From a virus (taxonomy: Duplodnaviria; Caudoviricetes), in the IMG/VR virus record IMGVR_UViG_3300047292_000147, positions 6,378 to 70,377 of that record: a stretch of 64,000 nt of DNA, one strand, 5' to 3'. The notes beneath the pieces are model-generated. The model made no database searches. It was not told where the DNA came from and was given only the letters and a program-made list of their open reading frames with translations. The position numbers and the translations under genes were made by a program. Below are positions 2 through 12,974 of this stretch, one piece after another (position 1 is the first letter of the stretch; each line of letters begins with the position of its first letter).

Positions 2-157
2 CAGTTGGCCTTCCAAAAAGACTCGTTTAACAAGCAGTACGCTGCCAACCAGTCTTTGACCAATTCCCGTCTGGAAGATCGTCAAGCACGCCGTGTGCTT
101 GAAAATCCAAACGCTACGGGCGTGGCTGAGTACATGTCCAAATGGGGAGTCAAGTAA
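2..157 (+). CDS. 3' end of N4 gp52-like structural protein (partial)
   Basis: Open frame from base 2 (QLAFQKDSFNKQYAANQSLTNSRLEDRQARR...KWGVK*). Its TAA overlaps the next ATG (TAATG). It lies two genes upstream of vRNAP, as gp52 does in N4. Confidence 0.6.
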   Translation, partial: QLAFQKDSFNKQYAANQSLTNSRLEDRQARRVLENPNATGVAEYMSKWGVK

Positions 158-1413
158 TGGCCCAACCCATCACCTGGCAGAACATTACCGCTCCCAGCTT
201 CGGTGAAGCCAACCGCCTCATGGGCTTGGCTCAGCAGTCAATCCTTGGTGCCTTTGATGGTGCCAAGACTGCACTGGCTGACACCGACAAGTTCAACCAA
301 GAGCTCTGGAAGCGTCAGGACCAAGATGCTACTCAGGACGCCCTGGGCAAGGTCTACCAGGCTCAGACCGTAGATCAGATGAACGCATTGAACCAGTCAG
401 GAGTACTGGATCAAGCCACTGCTGCAAACGGTGCTCGAATTGATCGTGCTGCTGTCAACGCTTTGCGTGACGGCCGTGTCAATACGCTTCAGCAACGCGA
501 GCTTCAAGGCTTAAAGTTTGGTGAAGAAAAACTTGGCATCGAGCAAGCTGGTGCCACTGCCGAAGGTCTGGCATTGGCTCAGAAGCAAGATCCTGTTGCG
601 TTTAACGCTTGGCTTGCTGCCAATCCACAGAACCGCAAAATGGCTGAAGTGCTTGGCTTGAATCGTACTGTTCAGCAAAGCGTTGAAGACCAGACGTTCC
701 AGCGCAATACCGACACCCGTGCTGGCAATGCCGAAACACGCGCTGCTGAAACCCAGCCGCTTACTTTGGACAAACTGCGATCCGACCTCCTTACAGCAGA
801 AAGCCAAAGAAACGCTCAAGCAGCACAGGCTGCTCTTGCTACTGCTCAGGCCGAAAAAGTTCGTGCAGATGCAAAAGCTGCTGCAGCTGCAGGAACTCCA
901 GGCAGTCTGATTGACGCTCGCTACAAGGAGCTGGTTGCCAACGGTCCATGGGACAAAGGCACGCTTGATACTGCAGAAGGCAAGAACGCTTTTCTGGACG
1001 GGCTCAAAAAAATGGGCCTTCCTTCTGCTGCAGTTGATGACGTTGTTTCTCAGGTGTACAAGTACTACGGCAAAGGTGCTGTAGTTGGCTTTGATGAAAA
1101 AGGTCAGCCGATCCGTGCACCTCTGGGTGTATCGACTGCGTTGCAAGCAGTGGGCGAGGCTGGTAGCAACACGATGGTTGACAGTCTCTTTGGCTGGAGC
1201 CGTCGGGGCGATCAGACTGCCAATGCGTTGGACAGGATGTTTGGTACTTACTCGACTGGCGAGAAGAATCCTGCTTGGCAAGCCACCAAAGACAACGAGC
1301 TTATTCAAAAGATGCAAGCCACGCTGGCTTTGCGGAATCAGCGTGAACAGCTTCTGGCTACTCCTCCTGAGCAAGTCAACTACAACGGCAAGAACCCAAA
1401 AAAGCAGAAGTGA
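157..1413 (+). CDS. N4 gp51-position internal virion/ejection protein (418 aa; start reassigned to ATG 157)
   Basis: Ala/Gln-rich, Cys-free and helical; begins MAQPITWQN; syntenic with N4 gp51 just upstream of vRNAP; start coupled to the upstream stop. Confidence 0.7.
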   Translation: MAQPITWQNITAPSFGEANRLMGLAQQSILGAFDGAKTALADTDKFNQELWKRQDQDATQDALGKVYQAQTVDQMNALNQSGVLDQATAANGARIDRAAVNALRDGRVNTLQQRELQGLKFGEEKLGIEQAGATAEGLALAQKQDPVAFNAWLAANPQNRKMAEVLGLNRTVQQSVEDQTFQRNTDTRAGNAETRAAETQPLTLDKLRSDLLTAESQRNAQAAQAALATAQAEKVRADAKAAAAAGTPGSLIDARYKELVANGPWDKGTLDTAEGKNAFLDGLKKMGLPSAAVDDVVSQVYKYYGKGAVVGFDEKGQPIRAPLGVSTALQAVGEAGSNTMVDSLFGWSRRGDQTANALDRMFGTYSTGEKNPAWQATKDNELIQKMQATLALRNQREQLLATPPEQVNYNGKNPKKQK

Positions 1414-1463
1414 CGGCACAACCACCGGCCCCAGTTGAGTCTGGGGCGGTGCCGTCAACTCAG
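1398..1463 (+). other. Candidate -1 programmed ribosomal frameshift signal
   Basis: A_AAA_AAG at 1398-1404 is in the zero frame, followed by the spacer CAGAAG. TGACGGCAC (1411-1419) pairs with GTGCCGTCA (1449-1457), and GCCCCAG (1428-1434) pairs with CTGGGGC (1441-1447). The -1 frame is open into the 1410..2129 ORF. Confidence 0.75.
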
Positions 1464-2129
1464 GTGAACGGTGCTCCTGCGCCGATCAAGCCAATTGCGC
1501 AGACACCAGAAGGCACTTTTGTTACATCGAAGGGTGTTCTTGTCAAAGCCAATGCCACGTTGGCAATCGATGGTTCAAGCGGTGCTCCAGTCGGTGTGAC
1601 TCGGAATCTTCAAGTCCCGAAGGAACTGAGCAACAGCAAGCCAACCACTTTGGTTCAAGCCGATCCGAAGAACCTGAAGAGTGGTGATGCGTTCAAAGCC
1701 ACGATGACTTGGGTCAAAGACGGAGACACGTTGGATCTGTCAAATGGTGTGGTTTGCCGAGTCAATGGCATCGATGCTCCAGAGACAGCCAAGCCTAAAA
1801 AAGGTCAGCCTGCTCAGGCGTACTCCGCTGAAGCAACGAAAACACTTGAGCAGATGGTTCGGAACAAGGAACTGACCATTCGCATTGTTGAACCACCAAG
1901 TGGTAAGAACTACGATCGTGCCTCTTGCATCATTGAAGTCGAAGGCAAAGACGTTAACGTCGCCATGCTTCAACAGGGAGCTGCCTGGTTCTGGGGTTCG
2001 TTTGTCAAAGACTCGTTTCAGTACCAGAAAATGCAGGCTGCAGAATCGAAAGCGAAAAAGAACAAGGTTGGATTGTGGAAAGATCCAGATCCAGTCTTTC
2101 CAAACACTTACCAACGACAATACCGGTAA
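1410..2129 (+). CDS. Thermonuclease (SNase-like) domain preceded by a Pro/Ala-rich linker
   Basis: Staphylococcal nuclease motifs KDGDT, RVNGIDAPE, NYDR, DVNVAMLQQGAAW and AESKAKKNKVGLW. The GTG start has no strong Shine-Dalgarno. Confidence 0.85.
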   Translation: MTAQPPAPVESGAVPSTQVNGAPAPIKPIAQTPEGTFVTSKGVLVKANATLAIDGSSGAPVGVTRNLQVPKELSNSKPTTLVQADPKNLKSGDAFKATMTWVKDGDTLDLSNGVVCRVNGIDAPETAKPKKGQPAQAYSAEATKTLEQMVRNKELTIRIVEPPSGKNYDRASCIIEVEGKDVNVAMLQQGAAWFWGSFVKDSFQYQKMQAAESKAKKNKVGLWKDPDPVFPNTYQRQYR

Positions 2130-2143
2130 CGGTACACATCAAG

Positions 2144-2172
2144 AAAGCCGGGGTAACTCCCGGCTTTTTCTT
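2144..2172 (+). terminator. Rho-independent terminator
   Basis: AAAGCCGGGG-TAA-CTCCCGGCTTT followed by TTCTTT. Confidence 0.75.
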
Positions 2173-2207: not shown

Positions 2208-5200
2208 ATGGCTGAATTCGACCTCAATAGCTATTTCTCCAAGCGCCAACAACTGTTTGGGCAAGACAAGGTAGATGCTTTGCAGAAGGCTTCTGCAGAG
2301 AAAGTTCAAGCTCTCCAAGAAAGCCGAGCCCGAGATCAGGCTTACCTAAACAGCCCTCAAGCACAGATCGATCGAGCTGTTGCGGAAGGCCGTACCTGGG
2401 GCGAGTTTGGTCAAGACGTTGGTTTGTCTGCCATTCAAGGCGTTGATGCCTTGGCCAAGTTGCCGGCAATGGTTTACGACAAAGCCACGGAAGGAAACTT
2501 CTATGGCACGGAGACTCAGAGGATCAGTGCAATGTCCGATGAGCGTGAAAAGCTCAAGTCGGCATTTGCACAGGCCAACAACAAGCAGAAAGCCGATGCG
2601 GCCAAAGCTGCTGGTGAAGCGGCCAAAGAGTACTTTGGTGACGGTGCCCTTGGAACTGGTGCGCAGGTTGCTGCCGAGTTTGGTACTGCTTTCTGGGAAG
2701 CTGCCAAAGATCCAGGCAGCATTCCTGAGTTCTTGGCTCAACAAGCTGCTCAGCTGGGCGTCATGGGCAAGGTTGGCCGAGCATCGGAGCTCGCAGCTAA
2801 AGCTGCTGTCAAAGCAGCTCCAGTCCTTGCGGCTACCAAGGCTGGCCAGGCCGCAGTGAACCGTGTCGGTACGGCCGGTGCAGTAGGCACTGGTGCTGTG
2901 CTTCAGGGTACAGACGTTGGTTCGGACACCATGACTCGCCTTATGGAGCTTCCACAGGCAGTCTGGGATCAGAACCCTCAGTACAAAGTCCGAGCCGCTG
3001 AAATCGGTGCGGATGCTGCCAAGCAGGAGATTGCATCTCGTTTGGCTTCGGAAGCTACGGTGCAAGGTGCTGCAACTTCGTTGCTGTCCGCTGCCTTGCC
3101 TGGTGGTTCGTCTGTTGAGAAGGCCCTGGTCGGCAAGTCCCTGGGAGGCTTCAAAGCTGTTCCCAAAGCCTTTGTCGGAGAGTCGGGCCAGGAAGGTATC
3201 GAAGAGGGTACTGGCAAGTTCTTTGGCAATGCTGGGGTCAAGCAAATCGATCCAACCCAGTCACTGTCCGAGGATGTGGGTGCTGCAGCTGGCCAAGGCG
3301 CTTACATGGGTGGCTTGCTGGGTGCCGGCATCAGCGGTGTGCAGACTGCCGGAAACGCAGCTGCCATTGCTGCCGCTGAACGTGCGGCCAAGGTTCAGGA
3401 GGAAGTGGCCAAGAAGCAGGATCTGAGCGCTGCAATCGCCTCAGGTGATGTCTCGGCTTACCTGGATCCCAAGAGCCCTTCCTTTGCCCCCGAGAAGGCC
3501 GTGCAAGGACTGTTTGGCAACAGCCAAAAGGAAGACACCACACCGGAAGCCAAGCAGACCAACTTCGTCAAAGCCGAATCGATCGTTGCTGACCTCAAGA
3601 GCGAACGAGAGAAGCTTCAGCTTGAGCTTGATTGGACCAATCCAGACAAGCTTCAGGCGCGTCTTGATGCTGGCAGGGACGGCTTTAGTCCTGAGCTTAT
3701 TGCAGCGACAGAAGAAACCATTGCAACGCTTCGTACTACCCCTGCTGATCCGAATGAGATTGCAGCGCTTGAAGCCAAAGCAAAAAGCATGGATCGAAAG
3801 ATCCAGCTGTCCGAAACCATTCTCAAAGACTTCAACAGGGAAGGCCAAAACCAGCAAGTTGATGTTGAGGCTGAAGTAGCCAAGCTGAAGGACGCTGATC
3901 CTGTGGTGTCACAGGGTGCGGCCGACAACATCATCAACCTGTCCATGAAGTCTCCAGAGCTCGTGGATCGGAAGTTGGCTGCATCACTGGTCAACGACAC
4001 CACGAACAACCTGACGGACTCTCAGCGGGATTACCTGCGTGCGTTCTCCGAGGCTCGAGTTGCTGAAAACACCCTGAAGACCATGGGTGACGTTTCCAAA
4101 GAGATCTTCTTTGGATCGGCCAAAGACAAGCAGGGAATCAAGTACACCGGTCTGGCCGAGTACCGAGCCAATGTAGCTGTGACGCTGGCTGCTGGAAACC
4201 AGAAGTCTGCTGACCGTGAACTGGCTTTGCTGACCAATTTTGAAACCAGCCATCAAGCCAAAGCAAAAGCTGCTTCTGAGGCCTATGCCGCATTCCTGAA
4301 AGATGGAATCGAACGTCGTGTCGTCAGAAACAAAGACGGCAGTTGGAAAGTTGAACAGGGTTTGTTTGAAAGCCCTGCTGCTCGTGTTGAAAACGGTGGC
4401 TTGGATATTAAGGAGAATTCTCCAAAGATCGTCGCTGAAACCAAAACAGAAGCAGATGCAATTTCCAAGACTGCTGTCGAATTGAAGGCTGCTTATGCAG
4501 TAAAGTTTGGTTCAGGTAATACCGGTGGAGCCAGTAATGTCCAGAACGTACCGCAAGCACTCGAAGGAATTCAAAGCGCCGAAACGCAGCTTCGACCCGA
4601 AGCCTCGACGCAAGATGGAGCCGCTGAGGGAGTTGCGACTACCGGAGGAGGAGCCGCTGCCGACGTTCAGGCCGATGCAACAGCTGGAACTGATGCTGTA
4701 GCTCCTGCAAGCAAAAAAACAAACAGCCTTGAATTTGCTCGTTCTCTTGACAAGCAACTAAGTGACAGGCTTACACCAATTAGTCGCGCTCAGAAAGATG
4801 GAAAGATCTCACTGGAAGACGCTCGTGCACGTTTTCAAGAAGAAAAAACAAAGCTCATTGCTGAGAATGCTGAAGCTTTGGTGGCTGCTGCTTTTGAAGG
4901 GATCGCCCCTCGCACGTTGGCTGTTGCTAAGTCGTTTGCCAAAGATGGAAATGCTGCAATGGCTGCAGCACAAGCCCTTGGAGAGGTAGGAATCGCTTCT
5001 AGGCTGTACCCAGAAAACGATGCCTTGGTGCAACAGCTTGTGCTTGCTCGCTTGGCTCAGGAAACCCCGGCCGCTGCTCCAACAACTCAGGAGGCTCCGT
5101 CCTCTGCTGCGAGCACTGTAAAAGCTAAGACAGATCAAGCTCAACTGCAGTCTACTGAGCAGGCTACCACTTCGACTGAAGCGGTCGTTCCGGTTCCTGA

Positions 5201-8200
5201 AGCGGTCGCAGAAGCTGTGGAGTCTCAAGGGCTTACCGCACTCCAACAGAAGTCCCCGGAGGGGAAGTCCTACGTTGAACGTAACCTGCTGGCTGATCAC
5301 CTGAAGCAGACAGGCAAGCGTCCGTTGGTGATGGTCAAGAACTTTGTGACTGCTCTGAAGCAGCAGACTGCAAAGGTCATGGACTACCTGGATGTGAAGG
5401 AGCCTACGGACAAGCAGAAGGCTGCGGTGCAGCTGCTGGCTCGCAAGGTTGCAGAGTGGGGTCCGGTCATCAAGGGAAGCCTGGTAAAGGGCTACTGGAA
5501 CAACACCGAGAAGAAAGCCAAGGACGCCACCGAGTACCGCTACGCCGACCTGATGCAGTTCCTGATCGAAGGCACCAACAAGGATGGCCTGGATCTGGAA
5601 GAGAACATCAAGACGGCGATCGTCTACGCAGCCATGCGTGCGACGGTGGACGCTGCAGACAGCAACACGTTCAACTCGCCCGAAGACATCAACGCAATGT
5701 TCGGCCGATCGGATGAAGCCGAGGTCTCCGAGACCGAGCAGCGCATCCTGGCCAACGTCGGTGTGCGGGACAACAACTGGCGCAATCGTGCCGGTCAAGC
5801 CGCTGTTCAAGCCCTTGGTTTGAAGGCTGCTGACGAGAACACGCCGATTGATCTGCTGCCCCGACTGGAGAGCGCTTTTGGTGCGTACATCCAGAAGCTG
5901 CTGATGGACCGGGGCATCATGGTTCGGGAGACCCTGAGCCGCAAGGAGATGGAAGAGCTGTTCCCCGTTAATCCAGCTGATCCGAGCAGCAAGGTGCCGC
6001 CTTCATGGCAGTTTATGAAGCTGGCTCGAGATGCGGAAGGCAATCCCGTGCCTGCTGCTCAGCAGATCATCGAAGGACTCCAAGGCACAGGCAACGTGCT
6101 GGACAAGCTGTTTGATGTGGAGACCTTGGTTCGATTCCCGGTGCTGCAAGCGGCCGAGTTCAAGGACAAGAGCCAGAAGGGCGTCAACGAAGGCATCCCG
6201 GAGAACCTGCTTGAAGCAGTGAACCAGAAGCAGCAGGAAGCAGGCTACCTGCGTGAAGACTCTTGGGCTGTGCTCAGTGCATTGCCTGAGAAGGCCTTTC
6301 TGATGATGCACGGCTGGGTGGATCTGGAAAACACGACCGTCCACGCAATGGACATGCTGTCGGTGCAAGCCAAGAACGAAGGCATCGTGCGTGAGTACAA
6401 CCGCATCAAGCAATTCGTGTCCGAGGTGATTCAGCCGGCTGCAACTGAAGCCGACACTGAGTTGGGTGCTGTGCCGTTCTACGCTGAGATGTTCGTTGCC
6501 AAGCAGCAGCGTGTCTTCCAGAAGACCAATGGCTTCAATCAGCAGACCAGCAAGATGCACAGAAACGTGTATCGCAAGGGCTCATGGTCTCTGGACATCA
6601 AGCTCTCCGACGAAGCAGCCATGAACAACTTCAAGCTGCGTGTGCTCGAAGCCTTGGGAACCAAGACCGATGCACAGACCAACGACAGAACGCTGGACCA
6701 GTTCGATGCTGCCTTTGATCCCGAGATGCAATCGAGCACCAAGGGCAAAGAGAAAGCCGCTGCATTGCGCGATGCCGTGAAGACACTGCAGAAGATCATC
6801 TACGAAGGCACCACTTTGAGTGATGCCGAAGTTGATGCTTTGGTCAATGGTGTGGCCAAGGGTGGTGAAAAGGGTTTGACGCTGGCTGCACTTCAGGACA
6901 TGGCTCACTACATGCAAGCCATGGAGACTGGAACCGAGACATTCCCGGTGCAGTTCCAGGGTGAGATCGATGGCAAGACCAACGGCGTGATCATCAGCCA
7001 GTTGCTTTTCGGTGGTGCCGAGAGCCTGGAAGACATGCAGAACCGCATGCGTCGTGGTGGTCTGTTCTTTGAAGGCGATCAGGACAGCCAGTTCAACTCC
7101 TGGAAGCAAGAGGGCAACCTCGACCAGTACGAGTCCCTGGCCAAGCGACTGAATGAGATCGCTCAGCTGACTTTAGCCAGCGATCCTGAGGTGTATGCAG
7201 CCATCGAAGGCTTCACCAAGCCGCTGTCTACTGCTGATGGCCAGGTAGCCAAAGAAGGCCGGGACTTCACCAAGAATCCGCTGACCACTTTGATGTTTGG
7301 TTCCACGCTGTACTCGGCTGTGGACAAGATGGGTGACAAGCTAATTGCTCAGATCAGCAAGCGCATTGTTGATGTCGTGGACGGCAAGACACCTTCGACC
7401 ATGAAGGAAGTTCTGCAAGACCTGAACACGCTGATCACCCGAGGCGGTGGCAAGCCGATCAACGTCAACATGACAAACGCTCAGGCGATGAGTTCAGAGC
7501 TCAGCTCTGACCAGACTGCAGCCATCAAGCGGGCATTCCACAATTCGCTAGGCGATGCTGCAAAGCAAGCCTTTGAAGAAGAGTTCGGCACCTACCTGCA
7601 GCAGCGCAGCATTGCTGATGAAGCAGCCAACTTGACGTTTGCTCTGTCCAATGCCGTGATCTCCGGCATGCGTGTGGATTACGTCAGCAAGCTGATTGCT
7701 GATGAAGTCATGCCTGTCAACCCGACTACTGGCCAGCCACTGCGTGCACTGACCAAGCAAGAAGAGCGTGAGTTCCAAAAGCAAGTCAGCAAGCTGATTC
7801 CCCGTGTGCACACTGCTGGCTCGAAGAAAGACGGCAAGCAGTCGTCTGGCATTGGCTTGTTCAAGACCAAGCAGACGCTCAGCACCAACCCTGTCTACCA
7901 AGGCAAGGCCAGCTTCGGGACTCCGTTTGCAGACACCGTTGGCAAGACCGGCCGTCAAGGTCAGTCGATCGAGTCGTTCAGCGCAAAACTGAACAGCAAC
8001 GAGGTGGTTCAGGAAGAGCCAGGGATCAGCACTTCATCAAAGCAGGTGCACTCCTTCGACAGTACGGTTGCTCGTGGTGCTGAAACGCTGTTGGCTGCAC
8101 AGGGCATCGAGACTGATAACAACCACGATGCTTTGACTTCTGGTTTGAATGGCTTCAACAAAGTTGGTCAAGCACTGAACCAAAGCTTCTACAGTGAGCT

Positions 8201-11200
8201 GTCCCAGTACTCGCCTCTGGGTGAGTTGTCTGCGTCGCTCAATGGGATGGTTCAGGCCATCATCGGTTTTGCTGTCACTGGAGAAGGCAACAACCTGACC
8301 CCCACTGCACAGAAGAACCTTGCTGCAGTGCTCAACGAGCTGGTCAGCACCTATGGTTTGGATGCTGCTGCATCCCTGAATCTGGTGATCAGAAACACTG
8401 CTGATGCTGCCTACCGTGCAGACAAGATGAAGCTGGAGACGCTGGCCGGTGTCGTGTCTGTGGATCAGTACACCTTGGAAGGCGGCAACTACGAAGTCAC
8501 TCCAAAAGATCGTGACGCCATCACCGCTCAACTTGCTGCTCTGAGCCCAGAGGTCAAGTTGGGTGTATTCGAGGCTGTGGATTCGTTGGTGACGCTGATG
8601 GGTGACACGCTCACCGTGCCTCAGGCTCGCCAGACAAAGACCAAAGGTGCCACTGAGTTTGGCAACCTGGGTGCGTCTTCCGTCCGACACGATGCAGATC
8701 TGGTCAGCGTCTTCGAGAAGCGCGGTCAGTTGAATGCCAAACAGTTGGTTCAAGTGCTGCGCAAGAAGTTTGCCGAGAACACTGTCAACCGGGAGATCCT
8801 GGAGAAGCTGGTTCCTCTTCTGAACGCTGGTTTGGTGGTGAAGTACATCACCCCCGACTCCACTTCGGCCGATGTGCTGGAGAAAGCCAAAGAACCTTCC
8901 CGTGGTTGGTTCGTGTCCAAGGATGGCCAGCAGGAGATCTACGTTCTGGGTACCCAGTTCAAGGACTCTGGCCTGACTCCCGAGCTGCTGTTGCACGAAA
9001 CCTTGCACGCTGTGCTGGCGCAGGTGATCAACGGTCCGAAGAGTGCGGATGCTCAGGCTCTGGTGGCCGAGCTCGAGACGCTGCTTGCCGAGGCCAAGGC
9101 CATCGTGGCAAGCGACGCGTCGTTGTCTGCCTTTGCGCCGGCCGTCACCAATGTGGATGAACTGGTGTCTTGGGGCCTGACCAACAAGAACTTTCAGGTC
9201 AAGGTGCTAAGCAAGGTCCGGATGCAGTCCCAGACCACTCAGAACCGTTTGGTTTCGGGCATAAAGGCATTCGTGGATGCGGTGGCTTCGTTGCTCTTCC
9301 GCCGTCCTGACAAAAACCAGAACCACGGTGTGTTCGTCTTGATGTCGAACGTCTCCGGTCTGTTGACTGAAGCTGCCAATTCCAAACCCGGCGTGGATGT
9401 GAACCTGAGCATGGCCAGCCAGGTCGAGCGGATCAACAGCTTTACGACCCTGCAGATCCACGAGGCATTGGATACAGGGGCCGTAGACCCCGCTTTCCAG
9501 TCTCAGCTGGCCAATCTCCTCACCGGCATCGTTGACGCGCTCCACGGCCCGTTTGGTGCGTTTGCGCAGGCATTGCGGGGGACCGAAGCCAAGACGCCTA
9601 TGGATGCGTGGGCCAAGGCCAAGGAACTGGGTGTCGCCCCGTTCGGTTCCAGCGTGCTGGCCCGGATGGGTGCAAGCGAGCAGGAAGCCTTTGTGATCGA
9701 GCAGGTGGAAGCGACGGTCAAGGCCGCTTTGGAAGGCAACAACGCACAGGCCAAGATCGCCTACCGCGAGCTCTACAACCTGTACACGGAGATGTACAAC
9801 AAGTTCAACAAGGACGGTTCCGACTTCTTCAAGGGTGATTGGGCTTTGGCCACTCCTTCGGAGAAGGCTCATGCCAAGAGCCAGTACGACTTCGTGTTTG
9901 AGCTAAAAAGCGACAACGGGAACCGTTCCGATTATCTGGCTCGGTTTGCTGCATTGGGTCTGGCCCATCAGGGTTTCAACCAGATGCTGCAAGTGGCGAC
10001 CGAGAGTGATGTTGGAAAGCTTCGTGGGAAAGAATCCTTTGAGCAACGTCTGCGCCGTTGGTTCTCCAACGTGCTGGGTATGTTCCGTCAGCGTGTGACC
10101 AAGACTTACGCCGGTCAGCTTGCGGATGTGAAGCTGCAGACCTTGGTTGGCCAGCTGGTAGACATCGAGGCCAAGAAGCGTTCTTTGATCCAAGCCAAGA
10201 AAGGGCTGATCAACACCGCCATGGTGGAAGACGGTGCACGGGAAGTCACCGAAGGGCTTCGTAAGACGATTGCCAAAGTTGCTGATTCGGATTTCATGCG
10301 CAACCAGAAGAACACTGCAGTGCAGGTGGTTCGCAGTGCGGTCAGCACCATCACCAACGATCGCACCGAGAAGTACATCGAGGGCATGCAGAAGTTCGTC
10401 GAACGCAATATGCAGGCTCAAGGCAGCGTGCTTGTCAGCGTTCTGAAGGAATTGACTGGGCACAAAGAAAAGCTGCAAGCAGCGTTCCGTGTAGTGAAGA
10501 AGTTCGAAGGCGATCGTCAGGATCAGATTGCTGGCTGGGCCAAAGATGCTCGCAAGGCATTTGGCAAGAAGCTGTCGAGAGAGAGCAGCGCCAGCATCAC
10601 TTCAGTGATCATGCGTACTGGCTTGCACTATCTGAGTAACACGATGTCAATGGCCGAGTTGGAGCGCTTGGTCGACAACCCGGTTGCTCAGAACCTGGCC
10701 ATTGCTGAACTGGAAGCCAAGCTGGGCCACATGAAAGCCGAGTACGTTACTCAGATTAAAGGACTGGGCTACTACAAGGCAACAGAGGAGGTGAAGGTTG
10801 AAGTGCTGATGATGAACTCGCACTTGATCTCCAAGCTGGCTGATACGGTTTATGAGAAGCAGATCAGCGATGCACAAGCCAAAGCAGCAGAACCGATCAT
10901 CAAACAGCTGGTGTCGCTCTACGCACTGAAGTACACCTCACGAACCGAGCAGGCTTTGGCCAAGCAGGTGTTCCGTGATGAGAACGCTCGTGGCGAGTCT
11001 GTTGGCAACGGCATCGACTTCGTGATGAAGACACAGAAGGCTCTGGAAGCAGAAGCCTTCGAGCGTCAGTTCAAGAACAACTCTGCATTGATGGTGCATG
11101 GCTTTACGCCTGAGATCGTGAACCCACACACCGAGTTTGATGTGCTAGACGAAGTAACCGGCAAAGAGCTGGAAGACTATGGCTACAAGAAAGGCGCTTC

Positions 11201-12974
11201 TGTTACCAAAGACAGCGTGGACCCTGACAAGAGCCGCAAGCACATCTACGTGCTCAAAGGCGCTGGCTTGGCTCCTCATGTGTCCGGTGCACTGCAGTTC
11301 CAGACAGATGCTGCCAAGGGCACAAAGATCAACAGCGGGTACACCAACGTCAACACCCAGGAAGGTCTTGAGAACGCACAGGTTCAGGCAGAGTTCAATC
11401 AGAAGCTTGGCTCGAAGATCGAAACAGATCCCAACTGGGATCCTTCGATGGAAACCAACAACTACACAGCGCCGCTCTACAACGAGAACGGCAAGGTTGT
11501 GAACTGGCGTTACCTGATGAATAAGCAGACCAAGGATGAGCTGCTTGAGCGCAACAACAGCTTTGATCGTGTGCTAGGTGTTCTGGGCGGTACGGTGTTC
11601 AGCAAGCCAAAGATCAAAGAGCAGAACCGTGCGGTGCTTGAAGCACTGAGGGAGATCTACAAGGACGACTACGCACTGAACGCAGAATCGTATGTCGAGA
11701 TTGGTCCTAACAGCAGCGACCCAGAGCTTCGTAGCTTTTGGGATCGTTTGCCTGAGCAGACCAAACAAGACGTTCGTGATGTCTGGGGCAGAGACAACCT
11801 CAAGGTGACGGCCGACAGCCTGGATCTGGTGTTTGGTTACCGCAAGCGTTCACTGGCTGAACCTTTCCGCCAAAAGCAGAAAAACATAGCCAAGCTGGAA
11901 GCAGGTGGTGCATTGTCTGAGGCTGACAAGCAAGGGCTGATTGCTCAGAACTTTGTGGCATCGGTTGAGTGGGCTCTGACAACCTTTGCTCGAGTAAAGC
12001 TTGGCAAGCCACAAGACGAAGCAGAGCGCTACGCCAAACGAGCTGCGGCTTACATGACTCGCAGTGAGCGTGCATGGCAAGAAGTGGTGCGCGAGATCAA
12101 GACGATCTACGTCATCAAGAACGTCTCAACCATGGTAGGCAACAACCTCAGCAACATCTCTCAGCTCTTGGCTTCGGGTGTGTCTTTGAAGTCTATCCGT
12201 GAGCATCTGCCTGTGGCCATGAAAGGTGTTACGGCATACATGGCTGATACCGAAGAGCTGCGTGAATTAGAGAACCAGCTGGCGACGGGCTACACCCAAG
12301 GCAACGACGCAGAAATTGAACGCAAGATTGTTCGTCTGCGTGATGCCATCGCACGCAACCCTGCACGGGAGATGATCGAAGCTGGCTTGATGCCGTCTAT
12401 CGTGGAAGACATCGGGGAAGCGGATGATCCGTTCTCGTACAAGACGGAGCTGGCCAAGAAAACGGAGCGCTTCACCGACAAGCTGAACCCGAAGGTCAAG
12501 GAAGCGGCAAAGTTTGTGTACATGACCCGAGACGGCAAGCTGTACAAAGCATTGCACCAGGCCACACAGGTCAGTGACTTCGTGGCTCGATACGTCATGT
12601 ACCAACACCGCATCAGCCGAGAGCAGAACCCTCTGAGCAAAGCAGCTGCGATCCAGGAAGTGTCTGAAGCGTTCGTGAACTACGACATTGCGATGCACCG
12701 GAACATTCAGTTCATGGACGACATGGGCTTCTTCAACTTCACGAAGTATTTCCTGCGGATGCAGAAGGTGCTGTTGAAGATGGGTCGTGAGAATCCTGCA
12801 AGAGTGTTGGCTTTGGCAGCAGCAGATTCGTACCTGAACTTGGGATCCATCGTTCTGGATAGCTCAGCTTTGGCCAAGATAGGCAACAACCCATTTGGTA
12901 TTGGTGCTCTTGGCTTCCCAGGTGCACTGGATGACCTGGCTACGGTGAAGGCAGCAATGGCCTTGGTGAAGTAA
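2208..12974 (+). CDS. Virion-encapsidated RNA polymerase (N4 gp50-like, 3588 aa)
   Basis: Size; single-subunit RNAP motifs A (GEIDGKTNG), B (RDFTKNPLTTLMFGS) and C (NNHDAL); no Cys seen in the translation; N4 synteny. Confidence 0.95.
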   Translation: MAEFDLNSYFSKRQQLFGQDKVDALQKASAEKVQALQESRARDQAYLNSPQAQIDRAVAEGRTWGEFGQDVGLSAIQGVDALAKLPAMVYDKATEGNFYGTETQRISAMSDEREKLKSAFAQANNKQKADAAKAAGEAAKEYFGDGALGTGAQVAAEFGTAFWEAAKDPGSIPEFLAQQAAQLGVMGKVGRASELAAKAAVKAAPVLAATKAGQAAVNRVGTAGAVGTGAVLQGTDVGSDTMTRLMELPQAVWDQNPQYKVRAAEIGADAAKQEIASRLASEATVQGAATSLLSAALPGGSSVEKALVGKSLGGFKAVPKAFVGESGQEGIEEGTGKFFGNAGVKQIDPTQSLSEDVGAAAGQGAYMGGLLGAGISGVQTAGNAAAIAAAERAAKVQEEVAKKQDLSAAIASGDVSAYLDPKSPSFAPEKAVQGLFGNSQKEDTTPEAKQTNFVKAESIVADLKSEREKLQLELDWTNPDKLQARLDAGRDGFSPELIAATEETIATLRTTPADPNEIAALEAKAKSMDRKIQLSETILKDFNREGQNQQVDVEAEVAKLKDADPVVSQGAADNIINLSMKSPELVDRKLAASLVNDTTNNLTDSQRDYLRAFSEARVAENTLKTMGDVSKEIFFGSAKDKQGIKYTGLAEYRANVAVTLAAGNQKSADRELALLTNFETSHQAKAKAASEAYAAFLKDGIERRVVRNKDGSWKVEQGLFESPAARVENGGLDIKENSPKIVAETKTEADAISKTAVELKAAYAVKFGSGNTGGASNVQNVPQALEGIQSAETQLRPEASTQDGAAEGVATTGGGAAADVQADATAGTDAVAPASKKTNSLEFARSLDKQLSDRLTPISRAQKDGKISLEDARARFQEEKTKLIAENAEALVAAAFEGIAPRTLAVAKSFAKDGNAAMAAAQALGEVGIASRLYPENDALVQQLVLARLAQETPAAAPTTQEAPSSAASTVKAKTDQAQLQSTEQATTSTEAVVPVPEAVAEAVESQGLTALQQKSPEGKSYVERNLLADHLKQTGKRPLVMVKNFVTALKQQTAKVMDYLDVKEPTDKQKAAVQLLARKVAEWGPVIKGSLVKGYWNNTEKKAKDATEYRYADLMQFLIEGTNKDGLDLEENIKTAIVYAAMRATVDAADSNTFNSPEDINAMFGRSDEAEVSETEQRILANVGVRDNNWRNRAGQAAVQALGLKAADENTPIDLLPRLESAFGAYIQKLLMDRGIMVRETLSRKEMEELFPVNPADPSSKVPPSWQFMKLARDAEGNPVPAAQQIIEGLQGTGNVLDKLFDVETLVRFPVLQAAEFKDKSQKGVNEGIPENLLEAVNQKQQEAGYLREDSWAVLSALPEKAFLMMHGWVDLENTTVHAMDMLSVQAKNEGIVREYNRIKQFVSEVIQPAATEADTELGAVPFYAEMFVAKQQRVFQKTNGFNQQTSKMHRNVYRKGSWSLDIKLSDEAAMNNFKLRVLEALGTKTDAQTNDRTLDQFDAAFDPEMQSSTKGKEKAAALRDAVKTLQKIIYEGTTLSDAEVDALVNGVAKGGEKGLTLAALQDMAHYMQAMETGTETFPVQFQGEIDGKTNGVIISQLLFGGAESLEDMQNRMRRGGLFFEGDQDSQFNSWKQEGNLDQYESLAKRLNEIAQLTLASDPEVYAAIEGFTKPLSTADGQVAKEGRDFTKNPLTTLMFGSTLYSAVDKMGDKLIAQISKRIVDVVDGKTPSTMKEVLQDLNTLITRGGGKPINVNMTNAQAMSSELSSDQTAAIKRAFHNSLGDAAKQAFEEEFGTYLQQRSIADEAANLTFALSNAVISGMRVDYVSKLIADEVMPVNPTTGQPLRALTKQEEREFQKQVSKLIPRVHTAGSKKDGKQSSGIGLFKTKQTLSTNPVYQGKASFGTPFADTVGKTGRQGQSIESFSAKLNSNEVVQEEPGISTSSKQVHSFDSTVARGAETLLAAQGIETDNNHDALTSGLNGFNKVGQALNQSFYSELSQYSPLGELSASLNGMVQAIIGFAVTGEGNNLTPTAQKNLAAVLNELVSTYGLDAAASLNLVIRNTADAAYRADKMKLETLAGVVSVDQYTLEGGNYEVTPKDRDAITAQLAALSPEVKLGVFEAVDSLVTLMGDTLTVPQARQTKTKGATEFGNLGASSVRHDADLVSVFEKRGQLNAKQLVQVLRKKFAENTVNREILEKLVPLLNAGLVVKYITPDSTSADVLEKAKEPSRGWFVSKDGQQEIYVLGTQFKDSGLTPELLLHETLHAVLAQVINGPKSADAQALVAELETLLAEAKAIVASDASLSAFAPAVTNVDELVSWGLTNKNFQVKVLSKVRMQSQTTQNRLVSGIKAFVDAVASLLFRRPDKNQNHGVFVLMSNVSGLLTEAANSKPGVDVNLSMASQVERINSFTTLQIHEALDTGAVDPAFQSQLANLLTGIVDALHGPFGAFAQALRGTEAKTPMDAWAKAKELGVAPFGSSVLARMGASEQEAFVIEQVEATVKAALEGNNAQAKIAYRELYNLYTEMYNKFNKDGSDFFKGDWALATPSEKAHAKSQYDFVFELKSDNGNRSDYLARFAALGLAHQGFNQMLQVATESDVGKLRGKESFEQRLRRWFSNVLGMFRQRVTKTYAGQLADVKLQTLVGQLVDIEAKKRSLIQAKKGLINTAMVEDGAREVTEGLRKTIAKVADSDFMRNQKNTAVQVVRSAVSTITNDRTEKYIEGMQKFVERNMQAQGSVLVSVLKELTGHKEKLQAAFRVVKKFEGDRQDQIAGWAKDARKAFGKKLSRESSASITSVIMRTGLHYLSNTMSMAELERLVDNPVAQNLAIAELEAKLGHMKAEYVTQIKGLGYYKATEEVKVEVLMMNSHLISKLADTVYEKQISDAQAKAAEPIIKQLVSLYALKYTSRTEQALAKQVFRDENARGESVGNGIDFVMKTQKALEAEAFERQFKNNSALMVHGFTPEIVNPHTEFDVLDEVTGKELEDYGYKKGASVTKDSVDPDKSRKHIYVLKGAGLAPHVSGALQFQTDAAKGTKINSGYTNVNTQEGLENAQVQAEFNQKLGSKIETDPNWDPSMETNNYTAPLYNENGKVVNWRYLMNKQTKDELLERNNSFDRVLGVLGGTVFSKPKIKEQNRAVLEALREIYKDDYALNAESYVEIGPNSSDPELRSFWDRLPEQTKQDVRDVWGRDNLKVTADSLDLVFGYRKRSLAEPFRQKQKNIAKLEAGGALSEADKQGLIAQNFVASVEWALTTFARVKLGKPQDEAERYAKRAAAYMTRSERAWQEVVREIKTIYVIKNVSTMVGNNLSNISQLLASGVSLKSIREHLPVAMKGVTAYMADTEELRELENQLATGYTQGNDAEIERKIVRLRDAIARNPAREMIEAGLMPSIVEDIGEADDPFSYKTELAKKTERFTDKLNPKVKEAAKFVYMTRDGKLYKALHQATQVSDFVARYVMYQHRISREQNPLSKAAAIQEVSEAFVNYDIAMHRNIQFMDDMGFFNFTKYFLRMQKVLLKMGRENPARVLALAAADSYLNLGSIVLDSSALAKIGNNPFGIGALGFPGALDDLATVKAAMALVK

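Follow-up and report, generated by a model that had tools for sequence, protein, structure and literature searches.

A conserved signal for probable -1 ribosomal frameshifting between a tunnel ejection protein and a nuclease domain in N4-like phages

In the ejection cassette of an uncultured N4-like (Schitoviridae) phage from a freshwater metagenome, an open reading frame (ORF) encoding a staphylococcal nuclease-like (SNase) domain overlaps, in the -1 frame, the end of the ejection-protein gene that precedes it. Is the nuclease synthesized as a protein of its own, or is it joined to the ejection protein by recoding? The DNA analysed, hereafter the window, is a stretch of 64,000 nucleotides (nt) corresponding to positions 6,378 to 70,377 of IMG/VR virus record IMGVR_UViG_3300047292_000147; it starts inside the ejection cassette, and all the features described below lie on its + strand. 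The two genes are ORF1 (157..1413), which encodes a periplasmic-tunnel ejection protein of 418 amino acids, recognised from its translation and from profile homology, and the SNase ORF (1410..2129). A previous inspection of this DNA, made without database searches (the sequence-only reading), had proposed that a -1 frameshift fuses the two. From the comparative evidence presented here, it is very probable that ribosomes undergo a programmed -1 frameshift at 1395-1404, under the stimulus of a hairpin at 1411-1457, and that two products arise, the 418-amino-acid zero-frame protein and a 657-amino-acid fusion.

The anatomy of the putative signal was examined first in the window. Read from the ATG at 157, the last codons of ORF1 are AAC (1393) CCA AAA AAG CAG AAG TGA (1411-1413), which confirms that the heptamer A_AAA_AAG (1398-1404) stands in X_XXY_YYZ register. 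A second heptamer, C_CCA_AAA (1395-1401), overlaps it in the same register and had been missed, the site being a double one, C_CCA_AAA_AAG (1395..1404). No stop codon interrupts the -1 frame between 1371 and the TAA at 2127-2129, and this frame, as claimed, leads into the SNase ORF. Slippage on C_CCA_AAA or on A_AAA_AAG would yield an identical product, with the sequence NPKK/AEVTAQPP at the junction (slash). The predicted transframe product comprises residues 1-416 of ORF1 followed by the -1 extension (1404..2129), a total of 657 amino acids, the size estimated by the sequence-only reading. The heptamer is separated by a 6-nt spacer, CAGAAG (1405..1410), from a two-tier candidate stimulatory hairpin (1411..1457), which is supported by its fold energy and by its pairing in relatives. 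It is built from a lower stem of 9 base pairs (1411-1419/1449-1457), an internal loop of 8 nt (1420-1427), an upper stem of 7 base pairs (1428-1434/1441-1447) and a terminal loop of 6 nt (1435-1440). Spacer and stems are those that had been proposed, and the structure has a fold energy of -30.5 kcal/mol (z = -3.1 against dinucleotide shuffles). An upstream Shine-Dalgarno (SD)-like stimulator of the dnaX type (GGAG-like), an optional element of the dnaX subtype only, was not seen by eye upstream of the heptamer. The sequence AAAAAAG occurs 8 times in the window for 9.8 occurrences expected. As the heptamer alone is not above chance, the test of frameshifting must be comparative: the significance of the heptamer rests on its register, its position, the 3' structure and its conservation.

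The closest relatives form a clade of ten members, the DNA of which was aligned (alignment A2); relatives are designated below by L followed by a number. Upstream of the heptamer the sequences are non-homologous, as the C-terminal modules of ORF1 have been swapped, and from AAAAAAG onward they align nearly base for base. AAAAAAG is invariant in 10/10 members. The codon that precedes it, which specifies P, G, S, V or A according to the relative, always ends with A (CCA, GGA, TCA, GTA or GCA), so that A_AAA_AAG is preserved. Both stems of the hairpin are 100% paired across 9 distinct relatives. In the upper stem, four pairs show compensatory double changes: a C:G pair is replaced by U:A in L098, L100 and L105, with a U:G intermediate in L103, and the whole upper stem of L102 is different (GCUUUGG/CCGAAGC). 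The lower stem of L102 contains two G-U wobbles, which pair only in the RNA of this strand. These changes entail amino-acid replacements in the encoded linker (Ala to Val accompanied by Ala to Thr), which indicates that RNA pairing is what is kept. The loop pseudoknot suggested by the sequence-only reading, between TGAGT and ACTCA (1436-1440/1458-1462), is complementary in the window and is not a conserved feature, the pairing holding in 58% of cells among relatives. Another pseudoknot (1423..1466) is possible, in which CACC of the internal loop (1423-1426) would pair with GGUG (1463-1466); these candidate partners are 100% paired in relatives and almost invariant, with one A-U to G-U change in the four pairs.

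The alignment of the clade also bears on how the locus is exchanged. When window positions 157-2129 are compared to positions 703-2696 of L003, ORF1 is 72% identical and the SNase ORF 97% identical, the break in this mosaic falling at the heptamer. Within the clade, the same frameshift cassette is joined to three unrelated ORF1 C-terminal modules. From these alignments, the frameshift cassette and the SNase domain appear to behave as one recombination module with the heptamer as its left edge. We also noted that gene callers place the SNase start at differing internal GTG codons in L100 (5129) and L101 (4389), giving proteins of 226-227 amino acids, where the overlapping GTG has been lost or the stop displaced; the public annotation of the locus is therefore inconsistent.

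We asked whether the arrangement extends beyond this clade. Hidden Markov models for the N-terminal domain of ORF1 (N-domain) and for the SNase domain were used to classify some 100 loci of IMG/VR and JGI metagenomes. The SNase domain lies in the -1 frame at 14 distinct junctions representing about 7 diverged lineages, with identities of 29-60% for the N-domain and 26-51% for the SNase domain. All 14 of these junctions carry an in-register A_AAA_AAG or C_CCA_AAR within 3 codons of the ORF1 stop, compared to an in-register XXXYYYZ in 2 of 47 distinct relatives devoid of SNase (TTTCCCA in both cases). The association between heptamer and SNase has a Fisher p of 5e-12, or of 2e-7 when counted as 7 lineages. 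A further candidate for the SNase-less set, L106, which ends with KKQK, was rejected as a scaffold gap of Ns covers its SNase region. The -1 lineages differ in the heptamer used and in its distance from the stop: the junctions read C_CCA_AAA_AAG TGA in L104, C_CCA_AAG GTG AGG TGA in L013, C_CCA_AAA CGG TAA in L012 and L064, and A_AAA_AAG TAG in L053/L054, and in L111 a run of 10 As contains A_AAA_AAG and is followed by AAG TGA. Hairpins starting 3-9 nt after the heptamer are found in L012 (z = -2.6), L064 (z = -3.4) and L013 (z = -2.5), and a weaker one in L054 (z = -1.2). The first ATG, GTG or TTG in the SNase frame is located 17 codons past the heptamer in L012 and 40 codons past it in L054, in both cases without an SD sequence, and for L064 the first candidate start is an ATG located 18 codons on. 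Most transframe products are predicted to have 656-676 amino acids, that of L054 reaching 763. Heptamer, hairpin and -1 register, the three elements that the sequence-only reading had proposed to look for in homologous loci, are conserved across deeply diverged lineages. The locus presents the elements of a canonical bacterial -1 frameshift signal: a heptamer in register, an open -1 frame, a 3' structure and conservation in homologous loci.

In five other lineages, the N-domain and the SNase domain are encoded by a single ORF, giving in-frame fusions of 654 (L006), 807 (L007), 977 (L028), 591 (L047) and 817 (L115) amino acids. These ORFs show that the covalent fusion of the N-domain to SNase is a selected architecture. 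The junction peptide has a common form, KK-x-EVT, whether it is reached by a predicted shift or read directly (NPKK/AEVT in the window, FPK/GEVT in L013, KKK/EVT in L111 and PEKKKEVT in L006). At the same junction, three of the five in-frame fusions carry a run of 9 to 11 As, from which the shifted frames meet a stop 1-5 codons on. L006 has A11, and its -1 frame stops after 3-4 codons; L007 has A9, in the context CA_A_AAA_AAA AGT, and its -1 frame reads K K K TAG TGA; L028 has A9 with A_AAA_AAG, and its -1 frame stops after 4-5 codons. Elsewhere in 94 distinct ORFs of the family (129 kb), no A or T run of at least 8 was found (p = 7e-5). L007 and L028 combine in-register heptamers with 3' hairpins (z about -3). 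As a separate observation on these two loci, a peptidoglycan hydrolase domain lies between the N-domain and the SNase domain, of the Glucosaminidase type (PF01832) in L007 (5001-7421) and of the SLT type (PF01464) in L028 (5001-7931). L006, L007 and L028 could shift to truncate, as dnaX does, by ribosomal or transcriptional slippage. Judged from the five in-frame lineages, on which the proposal of a reverse topology rests, the family seems to need a short and a long isoform, which different lineages would reach by opposite topologies. The comparison marks this boundary, the same across the family, as a presumptive recoding hot spot, at which shifting would extend the protein here and truncate it in the in-frame lineages with A9-A11 runs.

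What are the two partners of the predicted fusion? The profile of the ORF1 family (A1) matches DEV gp72 (chain 8vxq_R) over positions 1-304 with E = 1.1e-8, and only weakly N4 delta-C gp51 over the first 38 positions (E = 0.054). By this profile homology, ORF1 is assigned as a homologue of the periplasmic-tunnel protein DEV gp72/N4 gp51. N4 gp51, the counterpart of DEV gp72, is a 644-amino-acid protein with a T7 gp15-like leg fold, which forms a decameric channel (PMC13434306). We found 52 homologues of ORF1, common in freshwater metagenomes, all of which start with MAxPITWQN; their N-terminal ~200 amino acids are conserved and their C-terminal halves belong to at least 3 unrelated module types. 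Translation of ORF1 is preceded by a strong SD sequence at the ATG at 157 (-8.1 kcal/mol). When the window DNA 1-2300 and the ORF1 protein were used as queries, no matches were found in the cultured-phage collection. More central members of the ORF1 family match cultured Schitoviridae over the N-terminal ~140 amino acids only, with no adjoining SNase there, and the SNase ORF matches only unrelated phage thermonucleases in this collection.

Within the SNase ORF, the SNase domain (PF00565) spans residues 117-225 of 239 (68.2 bits for a gathering cut-off of 21; E = 1e-18), at ~1740-2126 of the window. It is preceded by a Pro/Ala/Val/Thr-rich linker of ~110 amino acids according to the Pfam placement, longer than the ~70 previously estimated. 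The catalytic and Ca-binding residues of SNase are D21, R35, D40, E43 and R87 in S. aureus numbering. Alignment to staphylococcal nuclease from the PDB showed that R35, D40, E43 and R87 are retained (R, D-x-P-E, R) and that T41 is Ala; DGD, R, E and R are invariant in 9 family members. Judged by these residues, the domain is predicted to be catalytically intact. The SNase ORF (1410-2126) also matches positions 1077-1244 of the 2317-position phrog_8809, a family of unknown function (E = 6e-21), which suggests that SNase domains are embedded in very large phage proteins elsewhere.

Several observations weigh against a frameshift as the general explanation of these loci. The support is comparative throughout. 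L104 and L111 have no significant fold downstream of the heptamer, and the L047 and L115 fusions are in frame without a slippery site, so that a two-isoform rule is not universal. Lys/Arg-rich tails end members of the family even in the absence of SNase, which raises the background for A-rich codons; the count of 2/47 SNase-less relatives with heptamers argues against basic tails as their origin. Two loci depart from the -1 arrangement. In L017 (6230-6669), the SNase frame is +1 relative to ORF1, without a nearby start codon, and GGAGG-TCA-CTT-C stands just before the ORF1 stop. An SD sequence followed after 3 nt by CUU is the spacing of the prfB +1 frameshift site; L017 has either a prfB-like +1 site or a 1-nt assembly error after a GGAGG-N7-ATGA coupled start. 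In L056 (1690-1800), ORF1 ends with TAG and is followed by a 28-codon mini-ORF that starts from an overlapping GTG and has a Lys-rich tail with an in-register A_AAA_AAA; the -1 frame of this mini-ORF is the SNase frame (KKSQGEVAPVT, like the junction in the window). The gene may be split in L056, or the assembly may contain an indel; L055, which has the same sequence, ends before the junction. Finally, a GTG or ATG overlaps the ORF1 stop in 9/10 members of the close clade, and also in L013, L104 and L111.

This last observation is the basis of a serious rival, in which no frameshift occurs. The SNase gene would be translated separately from the GTG at 1410..1412, which overlaps the ORF1 stop (GTGA), to give a free protein of 239 amino acids by coupling of termination to reinitiation; the hairpin would mask this start until ORF1 is translated, and the heptamer would be a by-product of the Lys-rich tail. 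Besides the GTGA overlap here and in most close relatives, this explanation has in its favour that a GTGA-coupled start is used elsewhere in this phage group (for the virion RNA polymerase of L036), that the lower stem includes the GTG, and that K/R-rich tails occur in the family whatever follows. The GTG is located at the base of the lower stem and, as the sequence-only reading had remarked, lacks a good ribosome-binding site: no SD match was found (duplex energy -0.6 kcal/mol). This is weak evidence against initiation there, as the ATG of the virion RNA polymerase gene at 2208 is likewise without SD (approximately zero), in a comparison that used crude first-start ORF calls. Relatives indicate that this candidate start is dispensable. 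The position of the GTG is occupied by ATG in L101, where ORF1 instead ends at a TAG immediately 3' of the heptamer, and by CTG in L100; an SD-bearing start is missing around the junction in L012 and L054, and the first start of L064 is its ATG 18 codons on. The heptamer is moreover kept at the nucleotide level while the preceding amino acid varies, in-register heptamers are nearly absent from the 47 SNase-less relatives despite equally basic tails, and single-ORF fusions of the same domains exist. Coupled initiation is thus a poor fit as the sole explanation, and we regard it as improbable in that role; it may well coexist with frameshifting. Such a coexistence leads to another alternative, in which both routes are used and the free SNase from GTG 1410 is the main nuclease product, the frameshift fusion being minor. 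Most members of the close clade retain the overlapping GTG or ATG as well as the heptamer and hairpin, and further in-frame GTG candidates are present at 1449 and, with an SD-like match, at 1464. However, the SNase ORF remains open from the heptamer onward in lineages without a nearby start, and the in-frame fusions show selection on the covalently linked form. We consider it rather unlikely that the free nuclease predominates.

Two further explanations concern the A run itself. RNA polymerase might stutter on it, and the mRNAs with one extra A would encode the fusion. Slippage is known to occur on runs of approximately 9 or more As (Thermus dnaX, IS elements), and runs of this length occupy the same place in L006 (A11), L111 (A10), L007 and L028 (A9). 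The window, however, has only A6, which is shorter than the runs that slip efficiently, and the conserved hairpin at 6 nt is a hallmark of ribosomal slippage. An RNA-library contig over 1391-1536 is without indel, although contigs hide minor variants; together, the RNA-library contigs X17-X19 cover 1391-1793 without indel, these contigs coming from a near relative and possibly deriving from DNA in the library, so that they inform neither on expression level nor on rare slipped transcripts. For the window, transcriptional slippage is thus very unlikely. The frame change might also be an artefact, due to a homopolymer sequencing or assembly indel, or mark a recently broken in-frame fusion, that is, a pseudogene. 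The sequence-only reading had argued that plain in-frame fusions in relatives would suggest an indel. Such fusions do exist, and the suggestion does not hold. Assemblies made independently from different samples, at least 10 in number, have the same A6 and frame arrangement; positions 1100-1795 are free of indels in a riverine DNA contig of separate origin (word depth 20.6), as is the site in the RNA-library contigs. A sequencing indel is thereby excluded. Diverged lineages with other heptamers share the arrangement, and the SNase catalytic residues are intact; an artefact or a pseudogene can be practically dismissed.

The preferred explanation, a programmed -1 ribosomal frameshift, would operate as follows. 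Most ribosomes would read through to the TGA and release the 418-amino-acid protein. A fraction of them would pause on the two-tier hairpin located 6 nt downstream, and, on C_CCA_AAA or A_AAA_AAG, the P- and A-site tRNAs would move back by one base. Translation would then proceed in the -1 frame, through the ~110-amino-acid linker and into the SNase domain, to complete the 657-amino-acid form. Slippage on A_AAA_AAG is favoured in hosts that lack a tRNA-Lys(CUU). The long form would be sub-stoichiometric in an ejection tunnel of ~9-10 subunits and would be carried into the host with the genome. A bulky C-terminus on a minority of the subunits of a 9-10-mer channel would provide a reasonable rationale for such recoding. 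The sequence-only reading spoke of two virion proteins made in a fixed ratio; the conserved site supports the two products, and the fixed ratio and the location of the long form in the virion or ejectosome are inferences. Whether the family as a whole follows one rule is a question on which we are more tentative. It is quite conceivable, if not quite an even call, that the tunnel is generally made of two isoforms, with a minority of subunits bearing an injected nuclease (and in some cases a peptidoglycan hydrolase), that lineages have repeatedly switched between extension, truncation and transcriptional slippage to set the ratio, and that the cassette and SNase travel as one module.

The signal itself is a textbook one, of the dnaX or IS3 type; it stands out by the strength of its comparative support and by its setting in an ejection protein, which is of biological interest. 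With the tau/gamma frameshift of E. coli dnaX it shares the heptamer and its register, a hairpin ~6 nt downstream and two isoforms with a common N-terminus. It differs in that the shift extends the protein rather than truncating it, in that no SD-like stimulator was seen, and in that the product is an ejection protein and not a replication factor. L007 and L028 have the topology of dnaX, with the long form in frame and a shift that meets a stop after 1-5 codons. In the orfA-orfB arrangement of IS1 and the IS3 family, the fusion likewise depends on a heptamer followed by a spacer and a structured stimulator, and it extends a short N-terminal product by a catalytic domain; the window locus is not a transposase, and no pseudoknot is supported here. 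The G/GT-type tail assembly chaperones of phage lambda and other long-tailed phages have a conserved -1 frameshift. Like it, the site described here belongs to a virion module, is conserved in position and variable in sequence, is kept across very diverged phages, and gives a longer form that shares its N-terminus with the shorter one. The protein family, the role and the morphotype (a podovirus here) are different, what is added here is an enzyme domain, and in some lineages the topology is reversed or the fusion plain.

Among ejection proteins, the nearest systems are N4 gp51 and DEV gp72, which are homologous to ORF1 and are encoded at the same place, directly upstream of the virion RNA polymerase gene; the size of N4 gp51 (644 amino acids) is close to that of the predicted long form (PMC13434306, PMC11445570). 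The words "frameshift" and "nuclease" are absent from the main text of the 2026 paper on N4 ejection proteins (PMC13434306). According to that paper, peptidoglycan hydrolase activity seems to be absent from the N4 ejection proteins (PMC13434306), in contrast to the relatives studied here that carry glucosaminidase or SLT domains in addition to SNase. A genome announcement for a podovirus of the T7 supergroup contains a one-line prediction of slippery-sequence frameshifting in an internal (ejected) virion protein; this case has no comparative support, and differs from the window phage in domains and gene order. Full-text literature searches on Schitoviridae found no description of recoding in their ejection proteins, in keeping with the statement of the sequence-only reading that none was known for N4-like phages.

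The surrounding genes are those of an N4-like ejection cassette. The 3' end of the upstream gene, at the gp52 position, is an open frame running from the start of the window (2..157), with a stop that overlaps the ATG at 157; it matches phrog_2646, of unknown function. In N4 the order of these genes is gp52-gp51-gp50 (PMC13434306). Downstream lies the gene for the giant virion RNA polymerase (vRNAP; 2208..12974, 3588 amino acids), which is recognised by its orthologues with vRNAP Pfam domains in relatives and which marks the phage as N4-like (Schitoviridae). The order ORF1, SNase extension, vRNAP gene is the same in these relatives. In L036, the vRNAP gene (6600-6640 region) has a GTG start that overlaps the ejection-protein stop (GTGA), and the N-terminus of its product, MSEFDLNAYL, is homologous to MAEFDLNSYF in the window. 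Between the SNase stop and the vRNAP gene, a terminator-like element (2142..2172), composed of a GC-rich hairpin followed by a T-run, folds with -17.9 kcal/mol; a consensus terminator scan did not list it, and direct folding shows it. The element (A-tract, GC hairpin, T-tract) is conserved in relatives, directly 3' of the ejection-protein gene in L004, which has no SNase, and after the fusion in L006. The presence of a terminator-like element within the ejection cassette, just 5' of the vRNAP gene, was unexpected.

The Schitoviridae ejectosome (gp52, gp51 and vRNAP) has been structurally described only recently, and neither recoding nor a nuclease cargo is part of that picture. If frameshifting occurs as proposed, the annotation of two genes at this locus is a systematic error of gene callers. 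The site provides a compact natural cassette of A_AAA_AAG plus hairpin, together with natural compensatory variants, and a single protein family with both frameshift topologies would be a rare case. For the phages themselves, the proposed mechanism would mean that the tunnel is built from two isoforms and that an active Ca-dependent nuclease is delivered to the cell envelope or cytoplasm at infection, where it may plausibly attack host nucleic acid or competing DNA.

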